A stretch of 63,409 bases of DNA, filler included, from Sphacelaria rigidula (taxonomy: Eukaryota): NCBI GenBank assembly GCA_964200075.2. It is 5 parts of 5 records of this genome, joined end to end, with 100 filler letters (N's around TTAATTAATTAA, not from the genome) between each part and the next. Parts side by side here need not be neighbours in the genome. Positions count along the whole stretch, not along the records: positions 38,109 to 50,709 come from CAXNAA020003581.1; 4 more parts are not named here. One strand, written 5' to 3'. Below are positions 6,821 through 50,809 of the stretch, piece by piece. Position 1 is the first letter of the stretch. Each line of letters starts with the position of its first letter. The position numbers were made by a program, and so were the translations under genes. Below the pieces are notes generated by a model that saw nothing but the letters and a program-made list of their open reading frames with translations, made no database searches and had not been told where the DNA came from.

Positions 6821-7716
6821 CGTACTCATTTGCTACTTGCCTTAGTCGTTTGACCATTGACCACGCAACCCTTTCGAGACGGAGCACCGTTCCTACTCCT
6901 AAGAGAGACACCTTCAACATTCCGGCGCTCATTACATTCCTTCCATACATCACACAAACACCCTTTACATATCTTATTCCCGTCCTGTTTTGCCGTCTCT
7001 GGCCACCATCTATCTCCTATAGCCATCGTTTTCTCCCTACTGTCTAATGCATCAAACGATTTCATGCCACCTTCGTTCACGNNNNNNNNNNCTCTAGCAC
7101 GTCCCGTTCCTCCTTGTATAGTTCACATTCTGCCACTATATGACTTTTGCTCTCTATTGCTTTGCCACAGGGGCAGTTCTGCCCACCTACTTCCTCCCTC
7201 ACACGCCGACTGGTATATCTCTTTCTTCTTTCTGGCAGGTCTAAGTCCCCCACCCGAAATCGCAAGTTCATATTTTTCGCAGCGTTCATGGGGCCATGCA
7301 AATATGCTTTCATCCCTATCTCCTCTCTCAACCACCCGTATATCTCCAGGTGTTCTTCCTCGTCTACTTTGCGTCTGAGCGCTCCTTTTCCCCTTATTTC
7401 GATCATATCTCTTACTTTCGTCTTGTACCCGCGCCTTCGCGTCTTCATCTATGGACAGCATTTCGTCTTGGTTTCCGCCTATCTCCTTCCACACTTTCTC
7501 GACTTCTCTATCCCACCTTATAGCACGACCTTTCGTACTTCTTCTGTATACAGCCCTATCAACTATAGCTGGCAGCCTCTTTCTTTACATGTTCTTTACG
7601 CTATACTGCCATCGCAATTTCCTCATGTCTCTGTTTTAAGTGAGTACATTCCCAACTCTGCTCTCAAAATTGTATTACTCGTCGTTTTCGAGCATCCGAG
7701 TATTTTCGTAGCTGCT
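6821..7716 (-). mobile_element. 5'-truncated non-LTR retrotransposon (LINE), C-terminal part of ORF2 with CCHC-type knuckle; decayed
   Basis: Minus-strand peptides AATKILGCSKTTSNTILRAELG..., LHGPMNAAKNMNLRFRVGDLDLPERRKRY, CPCGKAIESKSHIVAECELY, ...GAPSRKGCVVNGQTTKASSK*. Contains frameshifts and a 10-N gap at 7082-7091. Confidence 0.85.
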
Positions 7717-11160: not shown

Positions 11161-11944
11161 CGCGTCCGCTGCTAGAGCGAACAAGGGAGCAGCGGAGCTA
11201 ACCTTGAAGTTGAAGGACATGGAGACGTCTCTACGCCAGAAGGTGACTACCTCGCACACGCTCGGTTGTACTTGAAGATATTGAGAAACAAATGCTCGAT
11301 TTAGCGTTTGCTACGGAAAATTCACCGATATGCACCCGCGAGGAGAAACGTTTTGCCTTCTCTCCTTCTGTATAAATAGGTAGGTCTACTGCTGTATAAA
11401 TAGGGTTATCTATCTACTTCTGCACTAGTAGGTTTATCCACCACCTTTTCCCTCTCTCTGTTTGTCCTTTCAAGGGTGTTGTGTCGCCGTGTTCTTTCTC
11501 CGTCTCTCACCCCCTCTCTGTCCATCTGCCCCTCTCTCCACTTCTGGCCATCTCATTCCGGTTCATCGCTTTCCGCCCACTTCTCCGTGTGTGTTTGTGT
11601 GTGTTTGTATGTGTTTGTGCGTGTTTGTGTGGTTTGTGTCTGTCTGTCTGTCTGTCTGTCCGCCTGCCCGTCGGTCTCTGTTTTTCAATCTCTCCCCCTT
11701 CCCCCTCTCCTCCTTCTTGATATAATTTCTCTCACCCCACCCCCCCCACCNNNNNNNNNNTTTTTCTTTCCTTGCCTCCCCCCTCCCCTCCGTCTTCTTT
11801 TTTTCCCCCCCCCCCCCCCCCCCCCCCCCCTTTGTTTTCCCCCCCCCCCCCCCCCCCCCCCATCTCCCTTTATCTGGCCTTAAGGGCGATGCCGAGAACG
11901 AGGCTTCCAGACTAAGGGCCGAAGCCGAGCAGGAGCGAGATGAG
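11161..11944 (+). CDS. Two internal exons of a probable coiled-coil protein (partial gene)
   Basis: ccctccag|11161-11242 (ASAARANKGAAELTLKLKDMETSLRQK)|gtgac and ttaag|11885-11944 (GDAENEASRLRAEAEQERDE)|gtgac join in phase 0. A possible further exon lies at ~12221-12250 (EIVRLKIIN|gtaag). Confidence 0.55.
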
Positions 11945-12605: not shown

Positions 12606-12705
12606 NNNNNNNNNNNNNNNNNNNNNNNNNNNNNNNNNNNNNNNNNNNNTTAATTAATTAANNNNNNNNNNNNNNNNNNNNNNNNNNNNNNNNNNNNNNN
12701 NNNNN
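12606..12705. other. Artificial contig linker N44-TTAATTAATTAA-N44
   Basis: 100-bp spacer whose core places stop codons in all six frames. Confidence 0.97.
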
Positions 12706-15699
12706 CCCCCCCCGCGCGCCCCTGTCGTAGCATCACTTTTCCGTGGAACCACTCTTCAGAGCTGCGATCATCAGTCTATTGTTGAAACTTTGCTGTGCCA
12801 GTTGGAACGTTCCTCGCACATGTTTCCCGAATATTCCTCCGCGACGCTTTTTCAGCGTACACCTTACGCCGTCGTTGTAAATAGTTGTGGGATCGCTTTT
12901 CCCAGCTGTTTCACCTCAGGTCAAGATGTACACAAGTTGTGAGTATATATGTGCTGCCCACTTGATTAATCGTTGTCTTCAGTGGCCAGGTCAAACGCAC
13001 GCTACGGTGTGGCCACTGTGATGAGGTACCCACGACAAGCAAGCGTGGAGTTCAGAAGAATACTCTACAGGAGAACTGACTACTTTTTCAGAGCATTGCG
13101 AGCATTGAACCTCAGGTCCCTTATAATCGACACAATTTTCAGAGATCTACAAGAGCTCCAAGAGTTTTCGGACTCTGCGTCCAGACTTCTCCGAGGATGA
13201 ATAAGCAATGGTACGTCGTGGGTGCACTTTGTGCGCAAGATCTTGTCTAGTTTAGGGGCTAGCTTCTAAGGATTCCAGATGCACAAGGATATATGTCAGG
13301 GCATGCATTCCCATTTGTGAATTCATTTGGGATATCCCTAGCACATTTGAATGTAAAATAATCCTGGCGTACTCTCACATTTTCCGTAAGTCGTGTTTTG
13401 GATTAGATTAAGGGCTGCCAACAGTTCTACCCTCAGAAAATATTTGTGCACCCCTACCAAAGCATCACTCTGAAGGGCTTGATTTTTTCTCCGGAGCTTC
13501 ATTTTTCAAGAAATCCGAAAAATTCGGATTGCAACGCAGCTCTTCGGAGAGCTGCCCTGTGAAAACGCCGGGGCGCTGGCAAGCACTCGAGAATGATCAG
13601 ATATCTTTACAGTCCCGACAGTTTCGGACGTGTCCGGAATAACAGTGTCGATAGTACTGAGCCTTATTCGGTATCCACGACTTTTTTTTCAGCACTCAAG
13701 ACAACTGCATTATACCTGAAGAGTGGTGTTACCACAGGAGGGGCGCACACATGTTTTCCGAGGTTCGAATTTTAGGAGTCCTCTTTCTGAACCAAAACCA
13801 GCTTATGAATTTTGTGAGAGCACACCACGATTAGCATTCCGATGGGCTACTCGTAGAGAGATCCCGAATCAGTTTGAAAAAAGGGAATTATTCATGTCTT
13901 GAGCCATATTCCTCTTGTTGTGTACTCGTAGTATAGCCTCTAACTTTAGGAGCTCCTGAGGGAGAAATATATTACATGTGGGCCCAAATATGCAACCCCT
14001 GGCGTAGCAGCGTGACTCTGAAGTACCAACTTCCGAAAAAATACTGAGTACCTCGGAGTACCTGGAATATCGACTGCCGAATATTCTTGGTATTTCAGGG
14101 TACCTTACTTGAATAGTATCGACTGCGGGGTGTACTGAATATCATTTCGTCAGGGTACCTGGAGCGTCGCTTGCAGAAAACACGGAGCATTGCATAGTGC
14201 CTGGAGGATCGCGTACCGAAAGTACCGCTTATTCCCGAGTACCTGGAGTATTGGCACTTCCAATTACTCGTACTCGCTCCACCCTATTTGAAGCATCTTT
14301 GAAATAAATACGGTATTTCATGTCCCTGCCTTGATTGTTCAGTCTCATTGGCCGCGGCTCTGAAATTCGGACCAGGTGAAAGTTTAGATTGGCATGGGGC
14401 TGGCACAGGGTCAACAGTACCAAGTATCATCTAGCAACACGAAGAGCTGCGGCGCTGCGGCAAAACAAGACAATCTGTGTCAGTATCGCAATATATAGTA
14501 TGGAAGTTTGGTCAAGGTTCCTATGACTGCGCCCAGTGTTGTCTACTAGTCCGCTCCCAGTACCTGGTCGTGATCCTTCCGGTGGGACTGAGTCTTACTG
14601 TAATTCGAGTCTTCACTGGGACAGCCGTCAGATGTGGCCATCAATTGCGACCGACACCGACCGTAATCGGACGTGCGGGAAAACCCCGCCTATCGTCACA
14701 GCCGGACAACATCAACACTGGTACGTTTTACTGCGCGTGAGTTCTCCTCCTACACGGGCAGTGCCACAGCAAGTACACCGACTTTGCAAGTACGATGGGA
14801 AGATGGTTTATGGTACGATTCGAGGTGACACGAAATATGAATCCCGTTTCGAGCGGATCCAAGATCATGTTTTTACCCCGCTCAAAGCGGTGAAGTGCCA
14901 AGCCACCTGTCGTGTCCCATCGGTCTTATCTGAACTCATACTGTGAGATGGCCATGAATGGGGTCAAGTGCGCTATTATGGCAGTGGTCTTCCGCATATG
15001 CAACCACCACCCGCTTGCAGTACCTGCGCGGTGTCGGTACCGTCATTTTCGGAATAGTTGTTTTAACTCTCAACAGTACGTTTGGTGCCTCGAGATGATG
15101 TAGTACTGTAGCTACTCTGGTCGGTGAGGGAGGAGCTGATCCCACCGTATTGTACTGTTATGGGTGGGACTAGGGCCCGGTTTTGGGTACTATATTTCGG
15201 GAAAATGGATCACGAACGCTATATGCGTAAGAACTGGACTGTAATCAAAAATACATGCGTCACCTAGAAACAACGACCTGGCTCATATAAAATGTACTAT
15301 AAACATGGTGCATAAACATGGTACATATCTTCGAGCCTGTGAGTGCTCGGTGTTGAGATGATATTGTTCCTCCGGATGACTCGCTCCAGATCAGTGGGTG
15401 GAAACTCTTGGTGCACTAGTCTTCAGCTGCTGTACTACTCGGGAAGCGCACGCCCCCGAGCTGCCACCCCAAATTTACCACCATTGCGAAGATGAGAAGA
15501 CAAGAACACGAACAGCAGCAGTTGTGGCCGCCACACACCAACGCATCTGCAGTGAAAGGCGTGCCTGACATCGTGCTAGAACGAGAAGTACGGAAATTTG
15601 GATACCATGAGCAGCAGCGTCGCGCATGCCTTGGGTTCTGTCTCGGAAACGTCTGTCACAAGACGGCCGTGTTTCATCGGTGAACTCGTCCTCTACAAG

Positions 15700-25307: not shown

Positions 25308-25407
25308 NNNNNNNNNNNNNNNNNNNNNNNNNNNNNNNNNNNNNNNNNNNNTTAATTAATTAANNNNNNNNNNNNNNNNNNNNNNNNNNNNNNNNNNNNN
25401 NNNNNNN
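25308..25407. other. Artificial contig linker N44-TTAATTAATTAA-N44
   Basis: Identical 100-bp spacer. Confidence 0.97.
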
Positions 25408-38008: not shown

Positions 38009-38108
38009 NNNNNNNNNNNNNNNNNNNNNNNNNNNNNNNNNNNNNNNNNNNNTTAATTAATTAANNNNNNNNNNNNNNNNNNNNNNNNNNNNNNNNNNNN
38101 NNNNNNNN
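38009..38108. other. Artificial contig linker N44-TTAATTAATTAA-N44
   Basis: Identical 100-bp spacer. Confidence 0.97.
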
Positions 38109-38273
38109 TCCCTCGTCGACCGTTGAGTCGCATTTCGCGTACCCACGGCATAGTCGCTCTCCACTGTTGGGCATGGCGTAAGGAAAAATCCCAGATCGCT
38201 CCGGTAGTCGAACTCCACAACTCAACCATCAGAAGGTTACGACGTTACCAACAGAGCCACCGGGGCGACCGGC
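38109..38273 (-). mobile_element. tRNA-derived SINE, 5' part (cut by the contig start)
   Basis: Minus strand GCCGGTCGCCCCGGTGGCTCTGTTGG (A box)...GAGTTCGACTACC (B-box-like). Same family as 51360-51726. Confidence 0.85.
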
Positions 38274-38379
38274 TACATTAGAAATCGAAAACCTTGAGGA
38301 GAACGTCTGATATCTTGCTTGTGGATGAACCGTGGTGCTTCTGTCTGATCGCCTGCATACGTGAATGCTCTTTCGGTAG

Positions 38380-38897
38380 ACGCCGGCGTCGACATGCATG
38401 AAAACGACAGGCTGGGCAAGATGAACGTTTCCGGTGAGCACGAAATTGGATTAGTTTTTAGTCAAGACGATTCAATCTTGTATTCTCCCACGCAGGGGTG
38501 ATCCCGATATTTCGGTTGTTTCCACAGATTCGCGCCTTCTTCGCTTTCGATGACAACCTAGAAAAACGACGCCTGACTGGTGGCATCATCGATACACCAG
38601 TTCGAAACTGTACTGCCGCATTGCTGCGGCAAATTGTAGCCCTTATCGCTGTGCCCTTCAACCTACTGTGCGATGTTGTTTTTGTCGTTTTTCCTCTCCC
38701 TTCCAGACCAAGGGCTTCTAGACCGAGATTTTTTCGTCATTCGAACCTGTCTAGACATGGGGGTGCCCGTGGCTTGCGTGGTCGGTGGGGGCTACGACAC
38801 GAACAAAGAAGTACTAGCCGGCAGACATGCCCTGGTTTTCAGGGCTGCATTTCAGGCCTGGCGAGGCCTAGGAGCACGGCGTTCTCGTTGGCGATAG
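38380..38897 (+). CDS. Histone deacetylase superfamily protein (class IV/AcuC-like), last two exons
   Basis: Exon 38380-38433 (DAGVDMHENDRLGKMNVS) and exon 38707-38897 (DQGLLDRDFFVIRTCLDMGVPVACVVGGGYD...RHALVFRAA...*) join in phase 1. AGxD...DxLG and GGGY are the conserved C-terminal HDAC motifs. Confidence 0.9.
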
Positions 38898-39281
38898 TGC
38901 CAGACCTTTGCTTGGCGTCAAGGGCACTCGGATGCGCTTTGTTGGCGCAGATCTGATGGGCCTTCCCGGGGCTTATGGTTTGATTGGCTTGACGTGGCAT
39001 CGGTTTCCTTCGCACATGCATCTTCCTGTACGAAGGGTGTTCTCACCAAGCTTGGCATTCCATCATGTTATGCTAAACTCACGTACTTGATATCTTCAAG
39101 GAAACGCTGCCCCGTTGGAGTTTTGTTTTCTTCTTCCAAACACGATTGCAGGAATCATATACATCTTGCGTACACCATGTACACCACACCATCTTCTGCA
39201 ACGGCGGCCGCTCCACGACCATGCTTGTCTCGGCCACTTGCTTCATCCTCGCAATCGCTGTTTGACGATTGCTGATGCTCC

Positions 39282-42200
39282 TCAGCTAGAGAAGTACCGT
39301 CCAATCTCAGTGCCTATCGGGAGGTGGGATGATGTCAAGTGTAGTGCGGAAGTAAGCCGGCATGTGGAATCATTACGCAATGTTTCGCGTCCGTCGAAAA
39401 CCATCATACTACCACACCCAATCAGCGGCGAGGATTTACTCTGGTAGCCTTCGACCGACCATAGCAAATCACTCTCGGCACAGATGCCGTAATATACTCA
39501 TTTCGTATCACTGCACTCTGGCGCTTGCTTGTAAAACGTACCTGTTTGCAAACGTGGAAACCTTGGTGTCGAAGCATATCGCACACTTGCACGACTCTGT
39601 CTCCGACAGGGTGAACCTCGACCACCACTTGTCGCAGTTTCGGCCAGTCTTCGTTGTCTATCCCCGACAAGACATCCTGGCAACATAAATTGATGTTTTA
39701 TCGAAAGGGTGTTCAAAATCACCCACAAGGTTCGACCATACTATCCAAGATCACGGTCATCATGACCATTAATGTCAGTATCGAAGAAACAGCACCTGTT
39801 TGCCAACCTTTGAGGATGAGAACCAAGCCCAAAGCGCTGCAGGCGGCAGCATCATAGCTGTGATGGCTAGTGACAACACGTCACACTTCGCTCGGGTCAT
39901 AGCTCTAGGCCTACTAATACTCCGGAATGCCAGAGATGTACATGCGTGTTGCATAGGACGACCATTTGTGTACCATGATCCGCTACACAGCAGGGCACTG
40001 TTGTAGGTGGGATACTATTCAAGAAACAGGCGGAAAATCTACGAATATAGATCTTCACTCACCAATTCTGCGCCTTCCACATCAATCTTGAGCAGATCAA
40101 TCCTCTCTACGCCGAGATTCGACAGAGCCCATGAAACAGTGCGGACATCGCAGAGCACCTTTGGTCAGATATCATCGAGGGAAGATTGAGTCGCTGCTAT
40201 CATGTTGCAGAAACGATTGCAAATCATCACAATCGCGTTGCCGTAATCAACAAGCAGCTTGTGCGAGCACCAGCGGATGCAAGCGATGGCCTGCCCAATT
40301 CAAGCTTTCATAAAGGCATCGATTTGCGTTGAGGCTTTTCTCGGCTTCACGGCAGCATGATAGCACCAGGGCACAAGTACGCGTACCTTCTGCTCCCCGT
40401 GAAAGAAGCTTCCCCTCGAGTCCTCACACGGCATTTCCTTTCCTCGCTTTTCTGAACAAATCGCACACGTATCTTTTGTGCTTCCCATTCGCCCACCTTG
40501 CAGCTCTTCCTGCTTGAGGCACAAAAGCAACACCTCATGTTTGGCACGTGAGCAACACACACGCCTGATGCGTGTATACAGATCCTGAACAAAATGGACG
40601 GTCCTTGCGTAGACACTCGGCTTACAGCATATGGCAGTTCGGAAGGCAGGGGACCGGCTCTTTGCACGACAAGCGCCACCACCCCTTCCCTGAGGCGACG
40701 CGACCGAATACCTCTTGGCGGCGAAATAGACGAACATGTGGTCTTGGTGTGACGAGGGGTGAAGAGTGATGCTACGGTAGGGGTGCACACATATTTTCTG
40801 AGCTTAGAATTGTTAGGAGCCCTTGATCTCATGCAAAACACCACTTATGAAAATATGTAGAAGTACGCCAGGATTACTACTCCAATGTGCTGGGGATATC
40901 CCGAATGAATTTGCAAACGGGGATGTCCTGACCCACATGCTTGTGCATACAGAATCTTCAGGAGCCCCTGAACTAGACAATATCTCGCGAAAAAAGTGTA
41001 CCCCTACCGTAGCATTGCTCTGAACCGAACGTCCTATATATATATAACAGAGTATTGTTAGTCTAGACAATCCGTTCCACATGAGATCTCCATGTATCAC
41101 GACAAGCTCCGCGGATAAACATGACCTTCACCTTCTCGTGAGGCCTCAACGTGCTGTTGCCGGGCATTCGTGGGTAAAACGTCATGCTCGCTCCGTCTTC
41201 GTTCCTGGCACCAAGAGCATACCCCAGGATTTTAGCTCGCGGGCAGTGCCTGTGATTTGGTAGACGACAGTGTGCAAGGTGAATTTTTCAAAGGCTGCTG
41301 CAGGAGGAGGAAGACGTGATTGCTGCTATACATCGGCGCCAAAGCTGGGGGTGGGTGGAAGGGGGGAACATTTTACGTTCTTCAAGCTACAGTGAGGTTG
41401 CCAGCGTGATTTACCAACCCTTATGAGGAGAACAGAAGGTGTCGAGATGGTAGTTTACTACTTGAGCACTTGGCTCAAGGCAATATAATTGCTACGCTCT
41501 TATCTACTCACTGTGAACCCAACCAGAGCAAAATGACGCATGTCAGCGGGACTCCCACCATATCACACATGTTCCGCTCGGTCATTTGTGCAGTTATATG
41601 AGCACCAAGTCAACATGCGGTATAGCATGATGATGGTCAAAAACCAGGGTTTTTGTTCTGCCCACCAGCGCTCATGTTTTACTCACGTCTCAAGATTCCT
41701 TTCAAGTGTCTTCCTGTTCGCCGGGACGGGCTCGAACGCATATATACTGAGGGAGTCAGGTGTGTCAGTGCCTAGCTCGAAGAAAATACTTGTCAGCCCC
41801 ACGTTGGCGCCTGATGTCGAGAGGGGAACGCAGAAATGAAGAAAATAGTGAATTGTTGCAATGCAGTCGAACTGCGACGTTAGTGATACACTACGAGGAT
41901 GTTCTCATCTATGGCGCTCTGAGATAACACCGCAAAATGAAACACGTCGTGAAATTGCAAAAATAGAGGTATACCGTGGTCTCACCTACGTCCCACAATG
42001 TATCGCCGTCGTGGATACCAATGCCCATCCTTGAATACGTTTTGTCCTCGAACACCTCGTTGTAAATGAAGAACCCCTCCTGTTCCGCCCCCCTAGAAAT
42101 CCACAAAGGTATACCGTTTGACATTTCCCGCAGCATCAGTTCTGTGCCGGCTTCACCAGTACGATTTGCATTTACATCAATGCTAGCGGCTGCGCGATTT

Positions 42201-45200
42201 GTCCTGTCAGCAGTTGCCTTCGCTGTATTCGCCTCTAGAAAGTGGTGAATGTTCTTCATGGTATTGCCGAGACCATCCTCCGCTCTGATCTTCACGCCAA
42301 GACAGGCAGCACGAAGTCGTACCTGAGAAAGTTTGAGTTATTAGACGACGTCACACAAAAGACAAACAAGATATATCGTACAAAAGCTAGAGCGCGACGT
42401 CGTGTTCGATACCTCCTGACTTGAAAGATGTGCAAACTGACATACCAGAGTTTGCATCGACAGTTTGTCGCCTTACCTGAGGTGTAAGGGCAGAAAGGAT
42501 GGCCGAGCCAGCTTTGGACACGAGAGCTACAGGCGGTCCATCCTGTCGCTGTTCGCGCCCAGTAAACATAGATCGTTCCAAGACGCTTCCCACGTTGAGG
42601 TATTGGACGCGTTCCGCCCAGAAGAATTGATCTAGATGCTGCGGACAGATCACTACATTCCGGACGACACAGAAAATGACACAACCGGTAGGTCGGTGAC
42701 GCCAGGTGGTGAGACAATGCGCCGAGTGACACAGATCTCTTTCGGGAAGCACGCATCCGGCCAAGTGTAACTAAGCAGGTGGACCGGCGGCGATCATCTC
42801 GCAGGATCATTGGACACTGGATCAGCCATCCTTATTTCGAGGCAAAACTTCTTCACAATGCGCAAGAAGAGTTCTGCTACAGGCACAGCCAGAAAAATAA
42901 CCTGTAACGCACGATCTCACCGTGGGGTATGCCAGCCTTCAGCACAGCAGCCGTTGTTCCACTCCCCCCGTGATGAATAGCGAGCAGACAGCGAGGAAAG
43001 AGTAGGCCCTGCTCCAGAGATCCTCGATGAACCTTCGTGAGGGACGACGGTATTCACGGCGAATAACTCAAATTGAGCTTCAGCAGACAGGTGGAAAATA
43101 ATACAGCAACTATGCACATATATATATATATATATATTCCGGACTATAATTTGGTCAACCATGAACATGTTGTGCATTTGAGCAACCGGAACCTAAGCAG
43201 ACTACGGCGGGACTATTGCACAATTCATTGTCTAGCTTTCTCTCACAAGTAGACTATCTTCGCCTGCAGCAGCCTGCAGCTCGTCCATGAGAAATTCAGT
43301 CGCAATCTCCAACTCGCGTGACGTATCCATCCGCTCCACACAGCTCTGGACCTGGTCGCCTCGGTTGTATTCCATCCGTGGCACGGACACCAAGCACCTC
43401 AAGCCCGCCTGCCTCGCTGCCAACAATACCGATTGTAGGCAGCAAGCCAACCCGTAACCCGGCGCACACATTTCCCACATTGACCCAAAGCCGATGAACA
43501 GAGGTCTGTCCTCGCGGGCCAACAAAAAACACTCCACGTGGCGGGGAAGACATCCGTGCGCCTCATCCTTCGAATAGGTCTTTCTTGAATTCTGAGAAGA
43601 GTGTTCGACGGCCGAAGGTTTGGCGGCATTCCCAGCCTTTCGTTGCCCAGGCGAAATCTCTCCTGTGGCTGCTTTGCTTTCTACCGTTCGTGGGCCAGGA
43701 TTAGAGTGGGGTGCGCTTTGCGGGGTGTACAAATACCCACATACCCGCACGATTGCCGGCCAGAAGGGTGACTCATCCACCACCAATCCCGAAAAAAGAT
43801 AGAGTACCGGCGGCAATCGCGCTGAGTCAATGCCGTTAGGGGTCATATATTTCATGCCGCTGTCATCCCTCTTGTCATCACGTGCTGGAGAATGCATGTG
43901 CTCGTCGTTCGCAAGAGGGCGTGGATGAAGTCCTAGACGAGCTCGGAACGCACTCCACTCATCCGTAAAAAGCGGCCACATCCAATGCTCCACATGGTTC
44001 CACGCCGTTTCGTCCCGCTTACTACAGCGCGCTGTACATCCTTCTTCAGGCTCACCACTTTTTACGAAGGAGTCGGCGATTGCAGTTGCCCCTGAAGGTG
44101 TTGACGCGTGCGGTAGTACTAACTTAGGGGATGACAATTGCACGGGTGGAGAGTCGCTTCGTTTGACCAGTGGGCGTATGAGGCGGCGAAAAAGACGAGG
44201 ATAAGATCTCCTCATCCTGCCCGCAAAGGAGCTCGGCATGGGAGTCGCGATAAGGTACGGCTGACACACCACGCACGGAACCTGAGTACCGGTCAACGCG
44301 AGGGACGAGAACACGAACCGGGCAATGCCGCGCTTGATGGGTCAGGAGATGCAGCAAGCTCAACGACACAACCAACGAACACAGGTTCAAACTGACCGGC
44401 AACATCGTGGCATGTCCGGTTCCGATGATTATGCGTCGTCAACCCAAGCGAGGGAGCGTGGGATATACGACCGGTGTCCGATGCTACCTTATAAAAAAAC
44501 GGCATGCTTTACATACAGCACTATATGCATCGTACACGATGTTTTCGCCGATTTCGCCATAGAGTCATCCCATCGTAGGGGGTTGTGAGTTGCTACCCGG
44601 AGGAATGGTTCATGGTATGACATAGGACATGAGTCTTCACGTGCATTTTCGCGTTGTGACGCGTCGTCAAACTCTCGAGATGTCAGTGAATACCGACGCC
44701 AAAACCACTCCAAGTACTCTTTACGGTTTCGACCAACACCTCGAAAGTGGCATTGTGCGGGAAACAATGTAGTCGTAACACCCGGTCCCCCACCACGGGA
44801 TGGCTGAGCACACCTGTAGCTTCTCGGCGATATGGAACCCTTCCAAGGCGAACATGTTGAACACCACGAGGCCTACTCCTTCGCATGCCACCATGCATGC
44901 GTGTTGCTGTGCTTCCTGCGCATGTTCGATAGCAGAGTCTGCGCCGCCTTCTGGTGGCCTGTCCACGCCTGGAAGTGAGCGATCGGAATGATAACATTGT
45001 AACGCATGCAGCCTTTTTTCACGGAAAAAACAATTCAACAGCAGCCCGAACACAGATGTGTAACTGGTAAACCCAGGCCTAAATCCTTGACCCTAAGGGC
45101 TCTTTCTTGTTGACAGTACAGGATAATTCATTCGAAAAATAATCATTTGGCGACTTTACGCGCTGTGGTCAACACGCTACTTAATAATAGCTACCAAGCA

Positions 45201-48200
45201 CAAGGTATAACCCGATCCATCATATCATCTATTCCAAACGATTTTCAGATCCCGTCAAGACGGGGCCTCAGGCCGTGTCTCATCGAGACAGATCAGCAAC
45301 GACCACTCTATGTCATACAAGTATCGGGAACACATTTTCTTGTCCAGATGCAAGCCAGATCGGCGTACAGGCCTAAAAATGTGGCGGTTCTAGCAGTGGT
45401 CGTTGTACAACATCTCCGTGGTGGTACAGGAATGACGCGACAAGGAAGCACAACACCTACATACCGTGCCCCGAGAAATACGCAGTCACCGACCGCTCAT
45501 GAGAATCAGCTCCACCGCTAGCCCATGCTTCTCTACACACAGCGGTCTTCGTTTGACGGAAATCCGTTTACTATTGGAGGAAGGGCGCCCGCGTATGTAT
45601 CAATTTTAATCGGAAACGTTTTGTTGCTGGCCCTCATGTGTGGGCGTTTTCAGCGCGCATCTGACACAAACTGCTGGTTCTCGTTGAATTCTGAACCGAT
45701 TCGACCCAAGCTGAACACAAAGTGCTCAGCTCTGCAGCTACGACTTGAATGACACGTTTAGTTGGCAAGGGTAGTGAGGAGTGAGGCTCTCACTTTAATG
45801 TGTTGTGTGGGGTTCTGCGTCATACCTTTGATTGTGCCCCTGCGGTCACTGTCTTCATGTCCCTTCATGAGCAAAGATATGTCGGCCGGTTTGGGCAAAC
45901 ATGCTCTTTCCCGGTCTTCTTGGGGGTGGCATTGCACCCGCTAGTCACAGGGGACAAGAAGTGAACACATTTCGAGCAAACATATTTCTATGCCTCGATT
46001 AAGACACGCCCATGGCCGCTTCTTGTGGTCAAAAAAACTCTCTCCAAGAAACGCCCTTTGAGCGATTCAGCGCCAATTTTCGCCGGAAAATGGGCCTTGA
46101 CTGATTGTGCCACCTCGAAAAGATTCGCTATATTTTCCAAGCGGATTCTAGTGCACTTTCCCGATCTTTCGCACCCCCAGTTTCATATTTTTCCGGGTTA
46201 GCAATTTCTCAAACAAGCCCCAAACATCTTCGAGTTCTCCCCCCAAACATGTACAACATTCAAAGAAACACGGTGTTTCTGGGGCTGTTTGAAAATTCGA
46301 CAATCCGACCAAGAGTAAAGTTGGGCAAAAGATCAGAGAAATACGGTAGCATCCTCCTGGAAAGTATGGGAAATTTTTCCGCCGAGGCACAATTCGCCGA
46401 GGCCCATATTCCGGGGAAAATCGGTGCTGAATCATCAAAAGGGCGCTTCTTCAAGACTTTTTTTCGTATCACAAGAAGCGGTCTAACAGTGAGCAGCGAA
46501 CAGCTCAGTTGTGCAACGTGCTACAGCATGTATATAACGTGCGGCCTGGCCGATGAAGCATCCCTTCGTTTTCGCCTGAGAGACTTATTTTAGGAACGGG
46601 TTGCCTGGTACGGTGTTTGTTGCCTGAAATGCCTTATTTGAGCACGGCAAAGTCAAGATGCAACTAACGGCACTATGGTAACCATAAACCATCGCCGTGT
46701 GCCGTGAACTAGACCCTTGCCGATGAGGCACGCCTCAGGCTATGGAGAACTCTCGCCACTAGAGGTTAGGCTATAGAAATTGCCAATAAATATTTGGCTG
46801 CACGATTCTCGCGTTCCACCAACGACCGATGATCCCAGAAAGTTTTCCCTTCAAGTCACCCTCAGCGCGTACATCCACAAACATCTGTCGGGGACGAGGG
46901 AGGAAACGGGGAGGAGCTACAAACGAAGTAGTACTATCGCGCAGCACATGACACCGCTTTTCTCGAGGCATGACGTAGCGGTTGCGGTGGACGGGATGTC
47001 GTGGGCACCAAGCTCTGCTTGTCTGGATTATGCACTTCAGATCGCGCCCTGTGCTCAGTACTCGTTGCCCCTGAACCATAAACCATGGGCAGCAAGTCAA
47101 ACGTGGTAGTTGGAGGTCATCAATTTGCCAGCCCATGCTCTAGATGTCTGATACACCACGCAAGCCCAACGTCTGATATTTCTTGCTCTTTCGTTTTGAT
47201 ATATTTTCTAGGAGGTGTTTTGTTTTTTGTCGCCCGTGGTGCTTATGTGTGCCCTTGCCCGTGGTGTTTGTGTGTGCCCTTTGCGTTCTTTTTAATACGA
47301 ATGCTCCTTCGTGTTGAGCATTGATGGAGTCGGAAGTGGGGGTTCAGGGCTGGATGTGGTGGCGGTGCGGAGTGTGGAGAGAGTGTATAATATTCACGTA
47401 CCAGTACCAGGTGCCCGATAATACTTTGTCCACACCTCCGTACCCCAAGATATACTAAAACCAAGTAAAAAAATTGCCCCATGTTCTTTCACAGAAACCC
47501 GAAGTCATTGCTTTGTTTTTCATTTCGACCGCCCTAGTACGTACGTAGGTGTCGTTTTCACTCTTCGACGTGTACCCGTCGACCAGTCATGTGCAGTGCA
47601 GTGCAGTGCGATACATGATATGCGTTTTTGTTTTCACTCGATCACACCAGGGGGTACTTTTGAACATGCTGCAGTCATCCTCGGTGCACTCATGTTCCAC
47701 ACTTACATATGATTAGTTGTGACGCTTATCAAAAGCATACCAGCGCTAGGAGTAGACAGCGTAAAAGGAACTGAGGTACGCATGGAAGACAAATCAAGGT
47801 CGATTTGTCCTATCCAAGTAAGGCATGTACGGCATGTAGGGCATGAATGAGGTGTGAAAGGCATCGAATTACATGTGGGGCAAATGCCTCGAATTTTGCC
47901 CAAGCCCTTTTTTTCGCCTGCGGCGCGCCTTGCTGCGCATGCCTGACCACTGACCACGCCCACCTGCTACGGCGTGCTTTATCGCTGAGGGCCTGATGTA
48001 ACGGTCAGGCTACCGTAGCACATTCGTGGAAAAACGGCCTGGGTTCAAATAGGCATGATGCGTTCCACAAAGTTCAACTTAAGTTATGTTGAGCCCTCGC
48101 TCATACATGCATCTACAGGAGCACCGCTTGCTTGCTCAATATACCTCTCCAGATGACAGGTGGGGATTCTGCGGGCAGCACAGAATACTTGGTGTTCGCC

Positions 48201-48364
48201 GTCCCCGGAAGTATCTTCTCCACGAAACCGTCGGCACAACAGTGATCTCGATGTGTAACGAAGGCTAGGTGGTCGCACCAAAGCTGTTTTGATATTTCAG
48301 CGGCCAGGATTGCAAGCGGTTGCACATCTCCCCTCGTACCAAACGCACACACCGCAACCTTCAT
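39282..48364 (-). CDS. Fused GT-B glycosyltransferase (Glyco_transf_28-N/GT1 sterol-glucosyltransferase-like) plus FkbM-family SAM methyltransferase; 12 exons, 929 aa as modelled
   Basis: Exons, 5' to 3' on minus: 48145-48364, 44814-44968, 43247-44281, 42921-43032, 42477-42652, 41986-42322, 41687-41810, 41132-41249, 40387-40509, 40063-40158, 39542-39676, 39282-39440. All GT-AG, phases consistent, 2790 bp total, no internal stop seen. GT motifs: AFGTRGDVQP, FIGFGSM, LFPRCLLAIHHGGSGTTAAVLKAGIP, PQHLDQFFWAERV, IRAEDG. FkbM motifs: IYNEVFED, LWDVGANVG, IYAFEPVP, TFYPRMPGNST, IDLLKIDVEGAELDVLSGI...WPKLRQVVVEVH. Confidence 0.9.
46016..46481. mobile_element. ~465-bp fully palindromic foldback/MITE-like element in intron 1 of the GT-FkbM gene
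   Basis: CCGCTTCTTGTG...CGCCCTTT...GATTCAGC...ATGGGCCT...ATTGTGCC mirrors GGCACAAT...AGGCCCAT...GCTGAATC...AAAGGGCG...CACAAGAAGCGG. Pairing continues to a centre at ~46250. Confidence 0.8.
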
Positions 48365-48657
48365 TTCCGACCAATATTACTCTCCCCTATAGCCATGACG
48401 CGGATGTACTCCAAGAGCCCACCGGGACAGGCATGCTCCCGCTTTTTGTTCCGAGATACAAGTATGTGTAGTGCTGAGAGGGTTTAGAACCAGTGGTGGT
48501 ATGAACCAGTTCTACAACGGATCTGTGTAGAACCAGTACTGGAACTCATGAACATCCAGCCAGGTTCATATCGTTTTAAAATCGCGCCGGTGCTCTTCCG
48601 GCCGTTACCGCACGCCCGTGTTGTGCGCGACGCAATCACCATCGCAATCGTGCCGTG
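48365..48657. promoter_or_regulatory. Putative compact bidirectional promoter (293 bp between divergent ATGs)
   Basis: The GT-FkbM ATG (48364, minus) and the GCP4 ATG (48658, plus) are head to head. GAACCAGT occurs three times in 48487-48537. Confidence 0.5.
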
Positions 48658-49074
48658 ATGTTGCATGAGGTAATTCTTGCGCTTCTTGGGCATCCTGGGT
48701 CGATCATACAGGAGACGAAGGAGCCAAATGCAGCGCATGGACTTTCAAATACCACTTTCCGTGTGCAGGATTCCATCACCTTCCTCGCGGCAACCGAGCG
48801 AGATGCCATCAACAGACTCGTAGGCGTGGGAAGCACGTACAGAGACCTACGACGGTTCGTTCGACCACAACCCCTCAACTGGGCAGCCGATGCCAGCTCA
48901 CCACATAAGAAAGATTTATCCGATAGCAATGGAGAGGGACTGTACATTCGAGCGCTGAAGCTGGGGGTGGAGGAGCTGTTGGACGAGTACAGTAGGCGAA
49001 TTGCACAGGTGGAAAGTGATGTAATGAGCGATCCAACGTCCACCCTGGCCCGCGTCCACGCTGCTATTAGGGAG
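48658..49074 (+). CDS. GCP4: Gamma-tubulin complex component 4 (GCP4/TUBGCP4-like), first exon
   Basis: MLHEVILALLGHPGSII...FLAATERDAINRLVGVGSTY...GLYIRALKLGVEELLDEYSRRIAQVESDVMSDP matches the GCP4 N-terminus pattern (MxHExLLALxGxPG; YLRAxxxGL; LEQExLxDP). The exon ends at GAG|gtgagc. No further exons were identified before the contig end. Confidence 0.88.
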
Positions 49075-50174
49075 GTGAGCATGACTGCACGACACTGACG
49101 GACTAAGAAAATTGAACATGTTGTCGTCGGGCAGTGAAATCACAGTGTTGGCAGCTATTGAGCACCACTACGCGCGGCTGTGCTGTCTTGACTGCCGCTA
49201 CACTCTTGCAGCTATACTCTTCGTCTCTCATTTTGTTTTTGAAAAATTCCGTCCTAGCTGACCCTTCGTACCCCCGAAGATTGACAATTTTGATACAAAC
49301 GCTAGCTCTAGGGTGTATATATGATCCCCATTCGACAAATGGACACACGTCGGCGCCTTGAGGGCTACCGTGGTGATATGAATCAGTATAAACCCTGCGG
49401 AGGATAAGGTGTTGGAGGCCCAAACTTGTTACGCGGGAGTTACATGGGGGTGGGTGGTATACAACGTACCTCAGTATCGAGCCAAGAAAAGCCGAAAAAT
49501 TGAAACTCATCATCTGGGAATGAAATTCAGGGAGTGATACTTAGCCTACGGGTAATGTACAGTACGGTCACATTCTGCCAACCACGGTACTAGGGCTGTG
49601 TAGCAGTCCGCTTCTTCAACACAAAATACTATCCCTCCCTCGCTCCGGACCGCCGTCCGGCTAGAGGTGATTGTTTCAAGGAAACCGAAGGCCACCAGCA
49701 AATAAACGACACAACCACACGAGTGAAGGAAAGCAACATAATCTACGAATTAAATTGTGTGCTATTTTAGCGGTGATTCAACACATCGACTAGCCGGTGG
49801 ACTTTGTCGACATTATTGGACTCCTGCAGCTGCGGAGTTTTACACTATGCTGAGAACCAGACTCGATCCCGCAGATGCGGAGCTTTACCCAGAGATGGGA
49901 TGCTCACACGACGAATACGTCAACGGAGATGATGTATGTGTGAGTAAGTACCAGAACGGCGGACCTGAGCTAGTGGCCGACGCGGGCTGGGACGGCTGCA
50001 CCGTCCCCGTGAGACCAAAATGAAAGGCAAGGGCCTAGATAAATGGGTTCAAGAAACAATCGGGATGGAAAAAGTACTCGCAGGGAAGGTTGGTCGAAGG
50101 GCAAGGTCAAAGGAGGGCATGGGAAAGAGTGAAGCGAAGATGTAGGTAAGGCTAGACCTTGACCGCGTATAGGG

Positions 50175-50640
50175 AGGCTCAAAGTGGCGACCTACAGCGT
50201 CTGTACACTGTCTCCCACGGGACGGAAGGGGGGTGGCCATGGTGAGGTGGTTTTGCAATAGAGCAAAGCGGTAGGTTGTGACGTCAACAGATTGCAGGAG
50301 GCACGGCGACCGAGTAGAAATGAGTTCTCTGCGGCGGGATGTCCCGTCTTCTGCTGCGGGGCGGAAAGAGGCAAGGGAAGGACTGGACAACACGGGTTTG
50401 TGTTCGCGATCAAGAAATCGATGATAAAAACGGCTACGTGAGCACAGGCGCTCATCAGCCAACGCTTCATGTCGATGACTTACAGCCAAGCAGGGAAAAT
50501 CGAATGGGGCCACGTTCGTAGTTACCAATTCCATCGCAGACACGTTAAAGTCGGGAAAAGGGAGATATATTCTGGATGGAGTTGAGCATCATTGTGAACC
50601 GAATTCTCACCAATCACCACCTATTTTGACAAATGCTACG
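50175..50640 (+). mobile_element. Decayed LINE (RTE-like) APE endonuclease N-terminus, in the GCP4 intron
   Basis: RLKVATYSVCTLS...VVLQ*SKAVGCDVNRLQEARRP...FSAAGCPVFCCG...GQHGFVFAIKKS...ISQRFM...GATFVV corresponds to APE motifs (ATxNVRTL, LQETR, HGVG), with stops and frameshifts. Confidence 0.7.
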
Positions 50641-50709
50641 AGCTGGGCCAGCCTAGAGGCTGCATGGACGTTTGCAGGCGGATGCGCCGGCCAATATTTG
50701 GAGTTAGAT

Positions 50710-50809
50710 NNNNNNNNNNNNNNNNNNNNNNNNNNNNNNNNNNNNNNNNNNNNTTAATTAATTAANNNNNNNNNNNNNNNNNNNNNNNNNNNNNNNNNNN
50801 NNNNNNNNN
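50710..50809. other. Artificial contig linker N44-TTAATTAATTAA-N44
   Basis: Identical 100-bp spacer. Confidence 0.97.

Follow-up and report, generated by a model that had tools for sequence, protein, structure and literature searches.

A spliced gene of Sphacelaria rigidula coding for a GT1-type glycosyltransferase domain joined to an FkbM-type methyltransferase domain

The DNA analysed here, termed the window, is a stretch of 63,409 nucleotides (nt) from Sphacelaria rigidula (NCBI GenBank assembly GCA_964200075.2), in which five parts of five records are joined by 100-letter fillers; positions 38,109 to 50,709 come from CAXNAA020003581.1. On the minus strand of this part lies one gene of 12 exons and 11 GT-AG introns, whose joined open reading frame (ORF) is exactly 929 codons plus stop and whose product carries a glycosyltransferase (GT) domain followed by a methyltransferase (MT) domain. 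A first-pass annotation made from the sequence alone had proposed the same 12 exons and 929-amino acid (aa) ORF, and the transcript-defined exons reproduce both. Its low gene coordinate, 39282, was too high: the stop codon of the spliced model ends at 39155, so that 127 nt at the end of the coding sequence were missed.

Gene model and transcripts

Eight sequencing runs from two studies cover the locus, none of them recorded as RNA. Those mapped on 38800-48800 were X1, X2 and X3, which belong to one study and are labelled 'RNA?' by guess, and X5, a DNA run of ~71x depth with full coverage. All 11 introns appear as contig joints in X1, X2 and X3 alike (one contig per run per joint), with ends that read CT..AC on the plus strand and GT..AG on the gene strand, whereas X5 has no contig with any of the 11 joints. 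Exons are covered in X1-X3 at a depth of 15-80; intron 2 and the greater part of intron 1 (3.2 kb) have 0-5. Because the GT-AG joints are absent from the DNA run and the depth pattern is that of spliced RNA, we treat X1-X3 as transcript data. Record 2 of X1 (2423 nt) runs from ~25 nt 5' of the ATG across exons 1-9; record 7 of X2 (2358 nt) covers exons 1-10 and overlaps by ~30 nt with record 5 of the same run, which continues through exons 10-12 and 355 nt or more of the 3' untranslated region (UTR). Single contigs thus bridge both domains, and therefore the GT and MT lie on one spliced transcript. The locus is transcribed and spliced as a single unit.

Exon bounds were taken from the contig joints of these runs (RNA joints), and the exons were then joined computationally and translated. 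An in-frame stop lies five codons 5' of the ATG at 48364, within exon 1. The parts of the gene, from its 5' end, are as follows.

48145..48364, minus strand: exon 1, aa 1-73, with ATG 48364, the first GT N-terminal strand and the GTRGDVQP loop (RNA joint 44967/48144)
44814..44968, minus strand: exon 2, aa 74-125, with the clade motif FNMFALEGFHIAE (RNA joints 44967/48144 and 44279/44812; motif alignment)
43247..44281, minus strand: exon 3, aa 126-470, with the remaining GT N-lobe, HWMWPLFTDEW, a low-complexity insert and the start of the C-lobe (FIGFGSMW) (RNA joints)
42921..43032, minus strand: exon 4, aa 471-507, with the nucleotide-sugar motif HHGGSGTT (RNA joints; PF06722 match on the exon piece)
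42477..42652, minus strand: exon 5, aa 508-566, with the CPQHLDQFFWAERV (DQ) motif (RNA joints; invariant D and Q columns of GT alignment A1 kept)
41986..42322, minus strand: exon 6, the junction exon, aa 567-678 (RNA joints 42319/42474 and 41809/41985 in X1-X3, none in X5); the last GT helix extends to ~42236, the linker (~30 aa) occupies ~42235-42143, and the MT N-terminal part runs from ~42142 to the DVG of motif I
41687..41810, minus strand: exon 7, aa 679-719, with ANVG, the remainder of S-adenosylmethionine (SAM) motif I, and AFEP, where the acidic post-I residue lies (RNA joints; tblastn match to the homologue P0002 at 70% identity)
41132..41249, minus strand: exon 8, aa 720-759, with YPRMPGNST (RNA joints 41248/41686 and 40508/41131)
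40387..40509, minus strand: exon 9, aa 760-800, a variable insert inside the MT domain (RNA joints 40508/41131 and 40156/40385; weakly conserved in P0002)
40063..40158, minus strand: exon 10, aa 801-832, with LLKIDVEGAEL (RNA joints; PF05050 match on the exon piece)
39542..39676, minus strand: exon 11, aa 833-877, with QVVVEVH and the end of the MT fold (RNA joints; P0002 tblastn match at 65% identity)
39155..39313, minus strand: coding part of exon 12, aa 878-929 plus stop (RNA joint 39312/39541; P0002 tblastn match at 39202-39158)
38800..39154, minus strand: 3' UTR, 355 nt or longer; three contig records (1, 5 and 9) span 38800-39312 unbroken, to the edge of the mapped stretch

The passage from one domain to the other falls inside exon 6 (42322-41986), where the first-pass annotation had placed it. 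A single frame is open there for 112 codons, between an AG acceptor and a GT donor, and its translation runs from the last GT helix, VRLRAACLGVKIRAEDGLGNTMKNIHHFL, through the linker into NGIPLWISRGAEQEGFFIYNEVFEDKTY...LWDV(G). Intron 6 divides SAM motif I into DVG and ANVG. The spliced contigs of X1-X3 cross this exon, giving transcript evidence over exons 5-7. The signature motifs listed earlier for the two domains are all found in the spliced translation: GTRGDVQP, FNMFALEGFHIAE, WMWPLFTDEW and HHGGSGTT in the GT, and DVGANVG, AFEP and KIDVEGAE in the MT. The translation also holds LDQFFWAERV in the GT, and in the MT the last of these motifs stands in LLKIDVEGAEL.

A search of the junction exon against longer proteins found two. 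P0001, an ORF from a relative, is 84% identical over the entire junction exon, linker included. P0002, a 1092-aa EukProt protein with PF05050 and PF06722, is colinear with the window from 48364 down to 39158; exon 3 matches it at 40% identity (tblastn, 1.6e-67), and the C-terminal GVVYMVYARCI is conserved between the two proteins. Splice sites predicted from homology to P0002 alone equal the RNA joints at 8 of 10 junctions, the misses being the exon-2 acceptor (ranked 4th) and exon 9, which is poorly conserved and was left unanchored.

Two minor features of the transcript data concern exon 3 and intron 1. At 43921, in exon 3, the base is A in contigs of X2 and X3 but G in the window, X1 and X5; on the coding strand the codon CGC becomes TGC (R246C), and the difference is most likely allelic, between individuals or strains. 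Within intron 1, at 45112-46310, the RNA-like runs have low-depth contigs (~3-5) whose translations contain internally repeated peptide-like segments; these may derive from pre-mRNA, from a nested transcript or from a repeat.

The two domains and their relatives

The Pfam scan was done on ten open exon pieces, and domain calls otherwise come from homologues. Five of the ten pieces had no match, and two had weak matches (BUD31 and CAA_C) that are probably due to chance. For the GT, PF06722 (EryCIII-like_C, PF00201 clan) scores 26.3 bits (8e-06) on the 58-aa exon-4 piece, below its cut-off of 31.7, and 49.6 bits on P0002, and it matches 29 of 29 members of A1. The N-lobe profile PF03033 stays below its cut-off of 26.2 both on the exon-1 piece (15.6 bits) and on P0002 (13.9 bits), and matches 6 of the 29 A1 members. 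The window GT keeps all 8 invariant and all 11 near-invariant columns of A1, including HHGGxG and DQ. In GT1 enzymes the diphosphate is bound by HHGG(S/A)GT(T/S) and the sugar by the DQ motif that comes after it. Its closest solved sequences are yeast UGT51 (5xvm/5gl5, 2.1e-19) and GtfA (3e-14), with GtfB and GtfD also found. The AlphaFold model of a fused homologue, P0045 (pLDDT 84.9, pTM 0.74), resembles GtfB, UGT51, GtfA/D and OleD over ~450 columns in a fold search (TMt ~0.7-0.8); against GtfB and UGT51 the TMt is 0.71-0.76. The best PDB fold matches of this model are 1iir and 5gl5 (E ~1e-21), and no PDB entry in that search spans both domains.

Two acceptor-lobe motifs, FN.FALEG.H.AE and HWMWPLFT, occur in the alignment blocks of all fused proteins. 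FALEG.H.AE and HWMWPLFT also occur in the unfused proteins P0074, P0104, P0126, P0088, P0153, P0136 and P0092, and are absent from sterol-GT-type proteins (including P0019 and P0020) and from bacterial GT1 proteins. P0014 carries the clade motifs as well and is probably a truncated fused protein, because its sequence stops within MT motif I. In a quick maximum-likelihood tree of the GT (40 rows, 434 columns; several branches are long and the inner order is unreliable), a starred branch with a support of 100 parts the proteins with these motifs from an outgroup of sterol-GT (P0019, P0020; UGT51/UGT80-type) and bacterial GT1 proteins, and the window protein stands with the brown-algal fused proteins at the same starred support. 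UGT51, UGT80A2/B1, GtfA/B/D and OleD have in common with the window GT the GT-B fold and the donor motifs HHGGxGT(T/S) and DQ, but they lack the N-terminal acceptor-lobe motifs and the MT and, as UGT51/UGT80 and GtfA/B/D/OleD types, form the separate clade across the 100-support branch. By its motifs and its place in the tree the window GT is classed in family GT1 (GT-B), in a eukaryotic FALEG/HWMWPLFT clade.

This placement bears on the label 'sterol-glucosyltransferase-like' of the first-pass annotation, which holds at the level of fold and superfamily; the domain falls outside the UGT51/UGT80 group. It is improbable, in our view, that the protein is a true sterol 3-beta-glucosyltransferase whose steryl glycoside is then methylated. 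Yeast UGT51 is the best solved match (2.1e-19) and is also among the top folds, and databases name relatives 'sterol 3-beta-glucosyltransferase'; the 100-support branch nevertheless sets the clade apart from the UGT51/UGT80-type and bacterial GT1 outgroup, where the clade motifs are absent, and UGT713B1, the clade's probable plant member, formed no steryl glucoside (PMC4265157, in the text available).

Apart from UGT80A2 (637 aa) and UGT80B1 (615 aa), Arabidopsis has only one protein of this kind, UGT713B1/At5g24750 (520 aa), according to the available text of PMC4265157, which reports no steryl glucoside from it, in mutants or in vitro, although it had been taken for a sterol glucosyltransferase, and gives it no assigned function. 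UGT713 is mentioned in 3 papers of the literature searched. The unfused P0074, P0104 and P0126 (~500-540 aa) share motifs and clade with the window GT and appear to be of this plant type; unlike the window protein, the plant UGT713-type proteins have no methyltransferase domain. The Atlas clusters nearest P0104 (523 aa; scores 0.99 and 0.98) are from Streptophyta, with proteins of ~491-501 aa that carry PF06722 only. Such ~500-aa proteins are probably of the land-plant UGT713/At5g24750 type, an equation drawn from motifs, tree and clusters. The likeness to At5g24750 that had been put forward in the first-pass annotation thus stands as a lead; identity with that type would follow only by the same equation. 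A profile search with A1 scored 8000 candidates and gave 84 proteins at E<=1e-10, none of them with a plant name; these were mostly ~400-aa bacterial-type GT1 proteins, and only 2 of the 84, P0045 and P0171, were fused.

For the MT, PF05050 (Methyltransf_21) scores 23.8 bits on the 41-aa exon-10 piece, above its cut-off of 22.7, and 59.4 bits on P0002, where it covers profile positions 1-172 of 173. TIGR01444, with a cut-off of 37.7, scores 79.1 bits on P0005, the Ectocarpus siliculosus homologue, and 71.7 bits on P0045. Measured against 16 standalone FkbM proteins, the window MT retains all 21 invariant columns and 9 of the 14 near-invariant ones, so that in both domains the family-invariant columns are all retained and the loss of catalytic or SAM-binding residues, for which the alignments were checked, is not seen. 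We classify the domain on these grounds as an FkbM-family (PF05050/TIGR01444) SAM-dependent methyltransferase.

The window MT region is 60% identical to that of P0002, and the MT domain of P0002 is 36-45% identical to its standalone relatives and to those embedded in nonribosomal peptide synthetases (NRPS). In the embedded relatives the Pfam domain order is A, FkbM, A_C, PCP. In a quick tree of the MT (52 rows, 237 columns), 27 of 28 fused MTs stand apart from the cluster of NRPS and standalone FkbM domains (support 94), and the window protein groups with the brown algae on a starred branch of support 95; the fusion may have had a single origin. Structure searches gave no substrate clue: a PDB profile search returned only generic class-I methyltransferases (CbiT, MnmM), with the FkbM entry 2py6 at E 0.16, and the model of the standalone P0072 (pLDDT 95.1) matched CbiT, MnmM and 2py6 (TMq 0.57) in a fold search. 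The sole solved family member, 2py6, is distant and of unknown function.

Very large proteins (3,000-7,000 aa; P0027, P0033, P0038, P0042, P0058 and others) match the MT at 36-41% identity. Those scanned are NRPS modules whose adenylation domain is interrupted by an FkbM-type domain; P0033 also has a luciferase-like monooxygenase domain.

A search with P0002 returned 22 proteins, 9 of which carry PF05050 and PF06722 together. The nine include Ectocarpus sp. CCAP 1310/34 (1002 aa), E. siliculosus (1016 aa), Scytosiphon promiscuus (1041 aa), E. fasciculatus, Discosporangium mesarthrocarpum (partial) and the green alga Micractinium tetrahymenae (827 aa); the other matches were three partial brown-algal GT-only proteins, four bacterial NRPS (through the MT only) and sterol-GT-like proteins. 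A HMMER search with P0002 gave 14,437 matches at E<=0.001, of which the best 150 were used. Among the 170 proteins gathered, 32 have both domains, 39 the GT only and 99 the MT only, and in 32 of 32 dual-domain proteins the GT precedes the MT. All 22 fused members of A1 score with both PF06722 and PF05050. The 64 members of the Atlas cluster nearest P0045 are all from Eukaryota, most commonly from Chlorophyta; 98% carry PF05050 and 94% PF06722.

The brown-algal fused proteins are orthologues of the window protein: they agree with it in both domains and in domain order, and identity is ~46% end to end (Ectocarpus, Scytosiphon); their linkers are ~70-86 aa, against about 20-30 aa in the window protein. 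The green-algal fused proteins (Micractinium and the 64-member cluster) agree with the window protein in architecture, clade and catalytic motifs, at 27-32% identity and with short linkers. P0005, the E. siliculosus orthologue, is named 'amino acid adenylation domain protein', yet its precomputed Pfam annotation holds only PF05050 and PF06722 and no AMP-binding domain; the misnomer can be explained by the resemblance of its MT to the FkbM domains embedded in NRPS adenylation domains.

Beyond the algae, a prokaryote pattern scan with P0045 (one genome per species; fairly close relatives within reach) found 40 loci and no fusion, every locus matching only P0045 residues ~440-703, the MT part. 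A scan of viral contigs with A1 found six loci, all in the GT C-terminal motif region only, and no fusion. As far as these searches reach, the fusion is an algal, and so eukaryotic, family that is already in databases under automatic names, and the window gene is an orthologue of those database proteins rather than a new sequence family. It had been left open whether the architecture was undescribed; it is already present in Ectocarpus, Scytosiphon, Discosporangium, Micractinium and the 64-member Chlorophyta-rich cluster. A literature search, with subscription journals and supplements outside its coverage, found no paper on a fusion of a UGT713-like GT1 with FkbM. The general kind, a GT fused to an MT, is already known, and it is the UGT713-like GT1 plus FkbM combination that is without a characterised member.

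That the gene model or the assembly has merged two neighbouring genes we regard as extremely improbable. Nothing speaks for such an artefact, the sole weak spot of the case being the guessed RNA label of three runs from one study. The junction lies within one exon, spliced contigs cross it in three runs with joints that are absent from the DNA run, P0001 has the same exon at 84% identity, and independent gene models in several named algae share the architecture. The view that this is one gene and no mis-merge, already taken in the first-pass annotation, is borne out by the contigs that bridge the domains and by the GT-then-MT order in 32 of the 170 proteins.

Proposed function

Fusion of two enzymes from one pathway is a classic functional clue. 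We see an even chance that the product is a soluble cytosolic bifunctional enzyme, in which the GT1 domain glycosylates a small or lipid acceptor and the tethered MT O-methylates the same product. The N-terminal inverting GT-B domain would use a nucleotide-sugar as donor and act on the cytosolic side, on an acceptor that is probably not a sterol. The tethered FkbM domain would then O-methylate a hydroxyl of the glycosylated product, most simply on the newly added sugar, to yield an O-methyl glycoside or glycolipid.

A small or lipid acceptor is proposed because the nearest solved sequences and folds (UGT51, GtfB/A/D, OleD-type GT1) act on such molecules. A cytosolic location is suggested because the protein starts at the first GT strand and its hydropathy maxima in a simple scan are Rossmann strands, not membrane helices; for the same reasons a signal peptide or membrane span is unlikely. 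O-methylation would follow from the family, FkbM enzymes being described as O-methyltransferases and FkbM itself as methylating a polyketide hydroxyl (PMC12085832, in the text available).

Sequential action on one molecule is proposed from gene-fusion logic and from the precedent of A064R of chlorovirus PBCV-1. As described in the available text of PMC9614988, this soluble, cytoplasmic protein has two rhamnosyltransferase domains and an MT; once it has added its rhamnoses, it methylates the last one at O-2. Like the window protein, A064R joins GT and MT in a single polypeptide, the two being compared by description only and as an analogy of logic; it differs in that its GT domains are, in the same text, GT-A-like or of a new family, not GT1, and in that its substrate is a capsid N-glycan.

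Several points weigh against this reading as a whole. Domain calls for the 929-aa protein rest on exon pieces and homologues. X1-X3, all of one study, bear their RNA label by guess, and the contigs leave room for minor isoforms that separate the domains, with 12 joints beyond the 11 listed. Fused and unfused GTs are interleaved in the GT tree, requiring five changes, at least three of them forced by starred branches; the plant-type members of the clade are without the MT, and therefore the GT works untethered in some lineages. Linker length varies among homologues from about 20 to 90 aa, residues 442-454 of the linker fall below pLDDT 50 in the P0045 model (pTM 0.74), and a fixed domain interface is not evident. 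The closest non-fused relatives of the MT are standalone FkbM proteins (~250 aa) and FkbM domains embedded in the adenylation domains of NRPS; these are not known sugar O-methyltransferases, and therefore the methyl acceptor could be the aglycone. Nor did the literature found hold any characterised member of the fused family.

The last but one of these points leads to a different chemistry, which we think possible but unlikely: the methyl group would go on the aglycone, or the order would be reversed, methylation coming before glycosylation and creating or masking the glycosyl acceptor. The NRPS-interrupting and standalone FkbM domains nearest to the MT act in their context on non-sugar substrates, and the hydroxyl methylated by FkbM belongs to a polyketide (PMC12085832, in the text available). 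The fused MTs, however, form a group of their own (27 of 28 apart, support 94), so their specificity need not follow that of the NRPS domains, and the GT-then-MT order with the A064R precedent fits methylation of the sugar equally well.

A looser association is rather unlikely too, and we rate it slightly lower: the domains would have separate substrates and be fused for co-expression, co-localisation or stability, or one of them would be a non-catalytic binding module. A long, variable linker of low model confidence is what such a protein might have, and unfused GT relatives exist, the plant-type proteins included. Still, the order of the fusion is constant in brown and green algae, both sets of catalytic motifs are retained, and the clustering of the fused MTs suggests one old fusion kept under selection.

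If the fusion does make a methylated glycoside by glycosylation and then O-methylation of one product, it offers a testable hypothesis, a single-protein reagent and a metabolite class common to brown and green algae. The fusion might further serve as a Rosetta stone for the orphan FALEG/HWMWPLFT clade of GT1, from brown and green algae to the land-plant UGT713, a suggestion we make tentatively and consider doubtful. Were it right, the clade would make a conserved, undescribed cytosolic glycoside or glycolipid, which algae would O-methylate with their FkbM domain and which plants would leave unmethylated or methylate with a separate enzyme; in that case the algal enzyme would give access to the metabolite and to what UGT713 does. 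Since the gene is an ordinary orthologue of database proteins, we offer the finding as a lead rather than a discovery; it also corrects a misleading database name in Ectocarpus.

Surroundings of the gene

Upstream of the gene and divergent from it, an ORF at 48583-49098 (plus strand) codes for a gamma-tubulin complex component N-terminal domain (PF17681, 2.8e-15). Five other adjacent ORFs have no Pfam match, and among the neighbouring genes no functional link to the fusion gene is evident. A scan of the window with Rfam gave 0 matches. Runs of N amount to 372 bases, at 7082-7091, 11751-11760, 12606-12705, 25308-25407, 38009-38108 and 50710-50809, none within the gene; several appear as paired blocks of 44 N, and we read them as assembly gaps or masked stretches.

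Intron 8 contains one further feature, outside the coding sequence.

40763..41021, no strand given: high-copy element of ~260 bp with 20-nt terminal inverted repeats

The terminal repeats lie at 40769-40788 (plus) and 40996-41015 (minus) and read ATGCTACGGTAGGGGT[G/A]CAC. In X5 the summed depth rises to 455,677 over the element, compared with ~71 on either side, and the RNA-like runs are deep here too; many loose contig ends fall at its edges, 40763 and 41021. The element resembles a miniature inverted-repeat transposable element. A copy of its repeat end with two mismatches is found elsewhere in the window, at 13446-13465.

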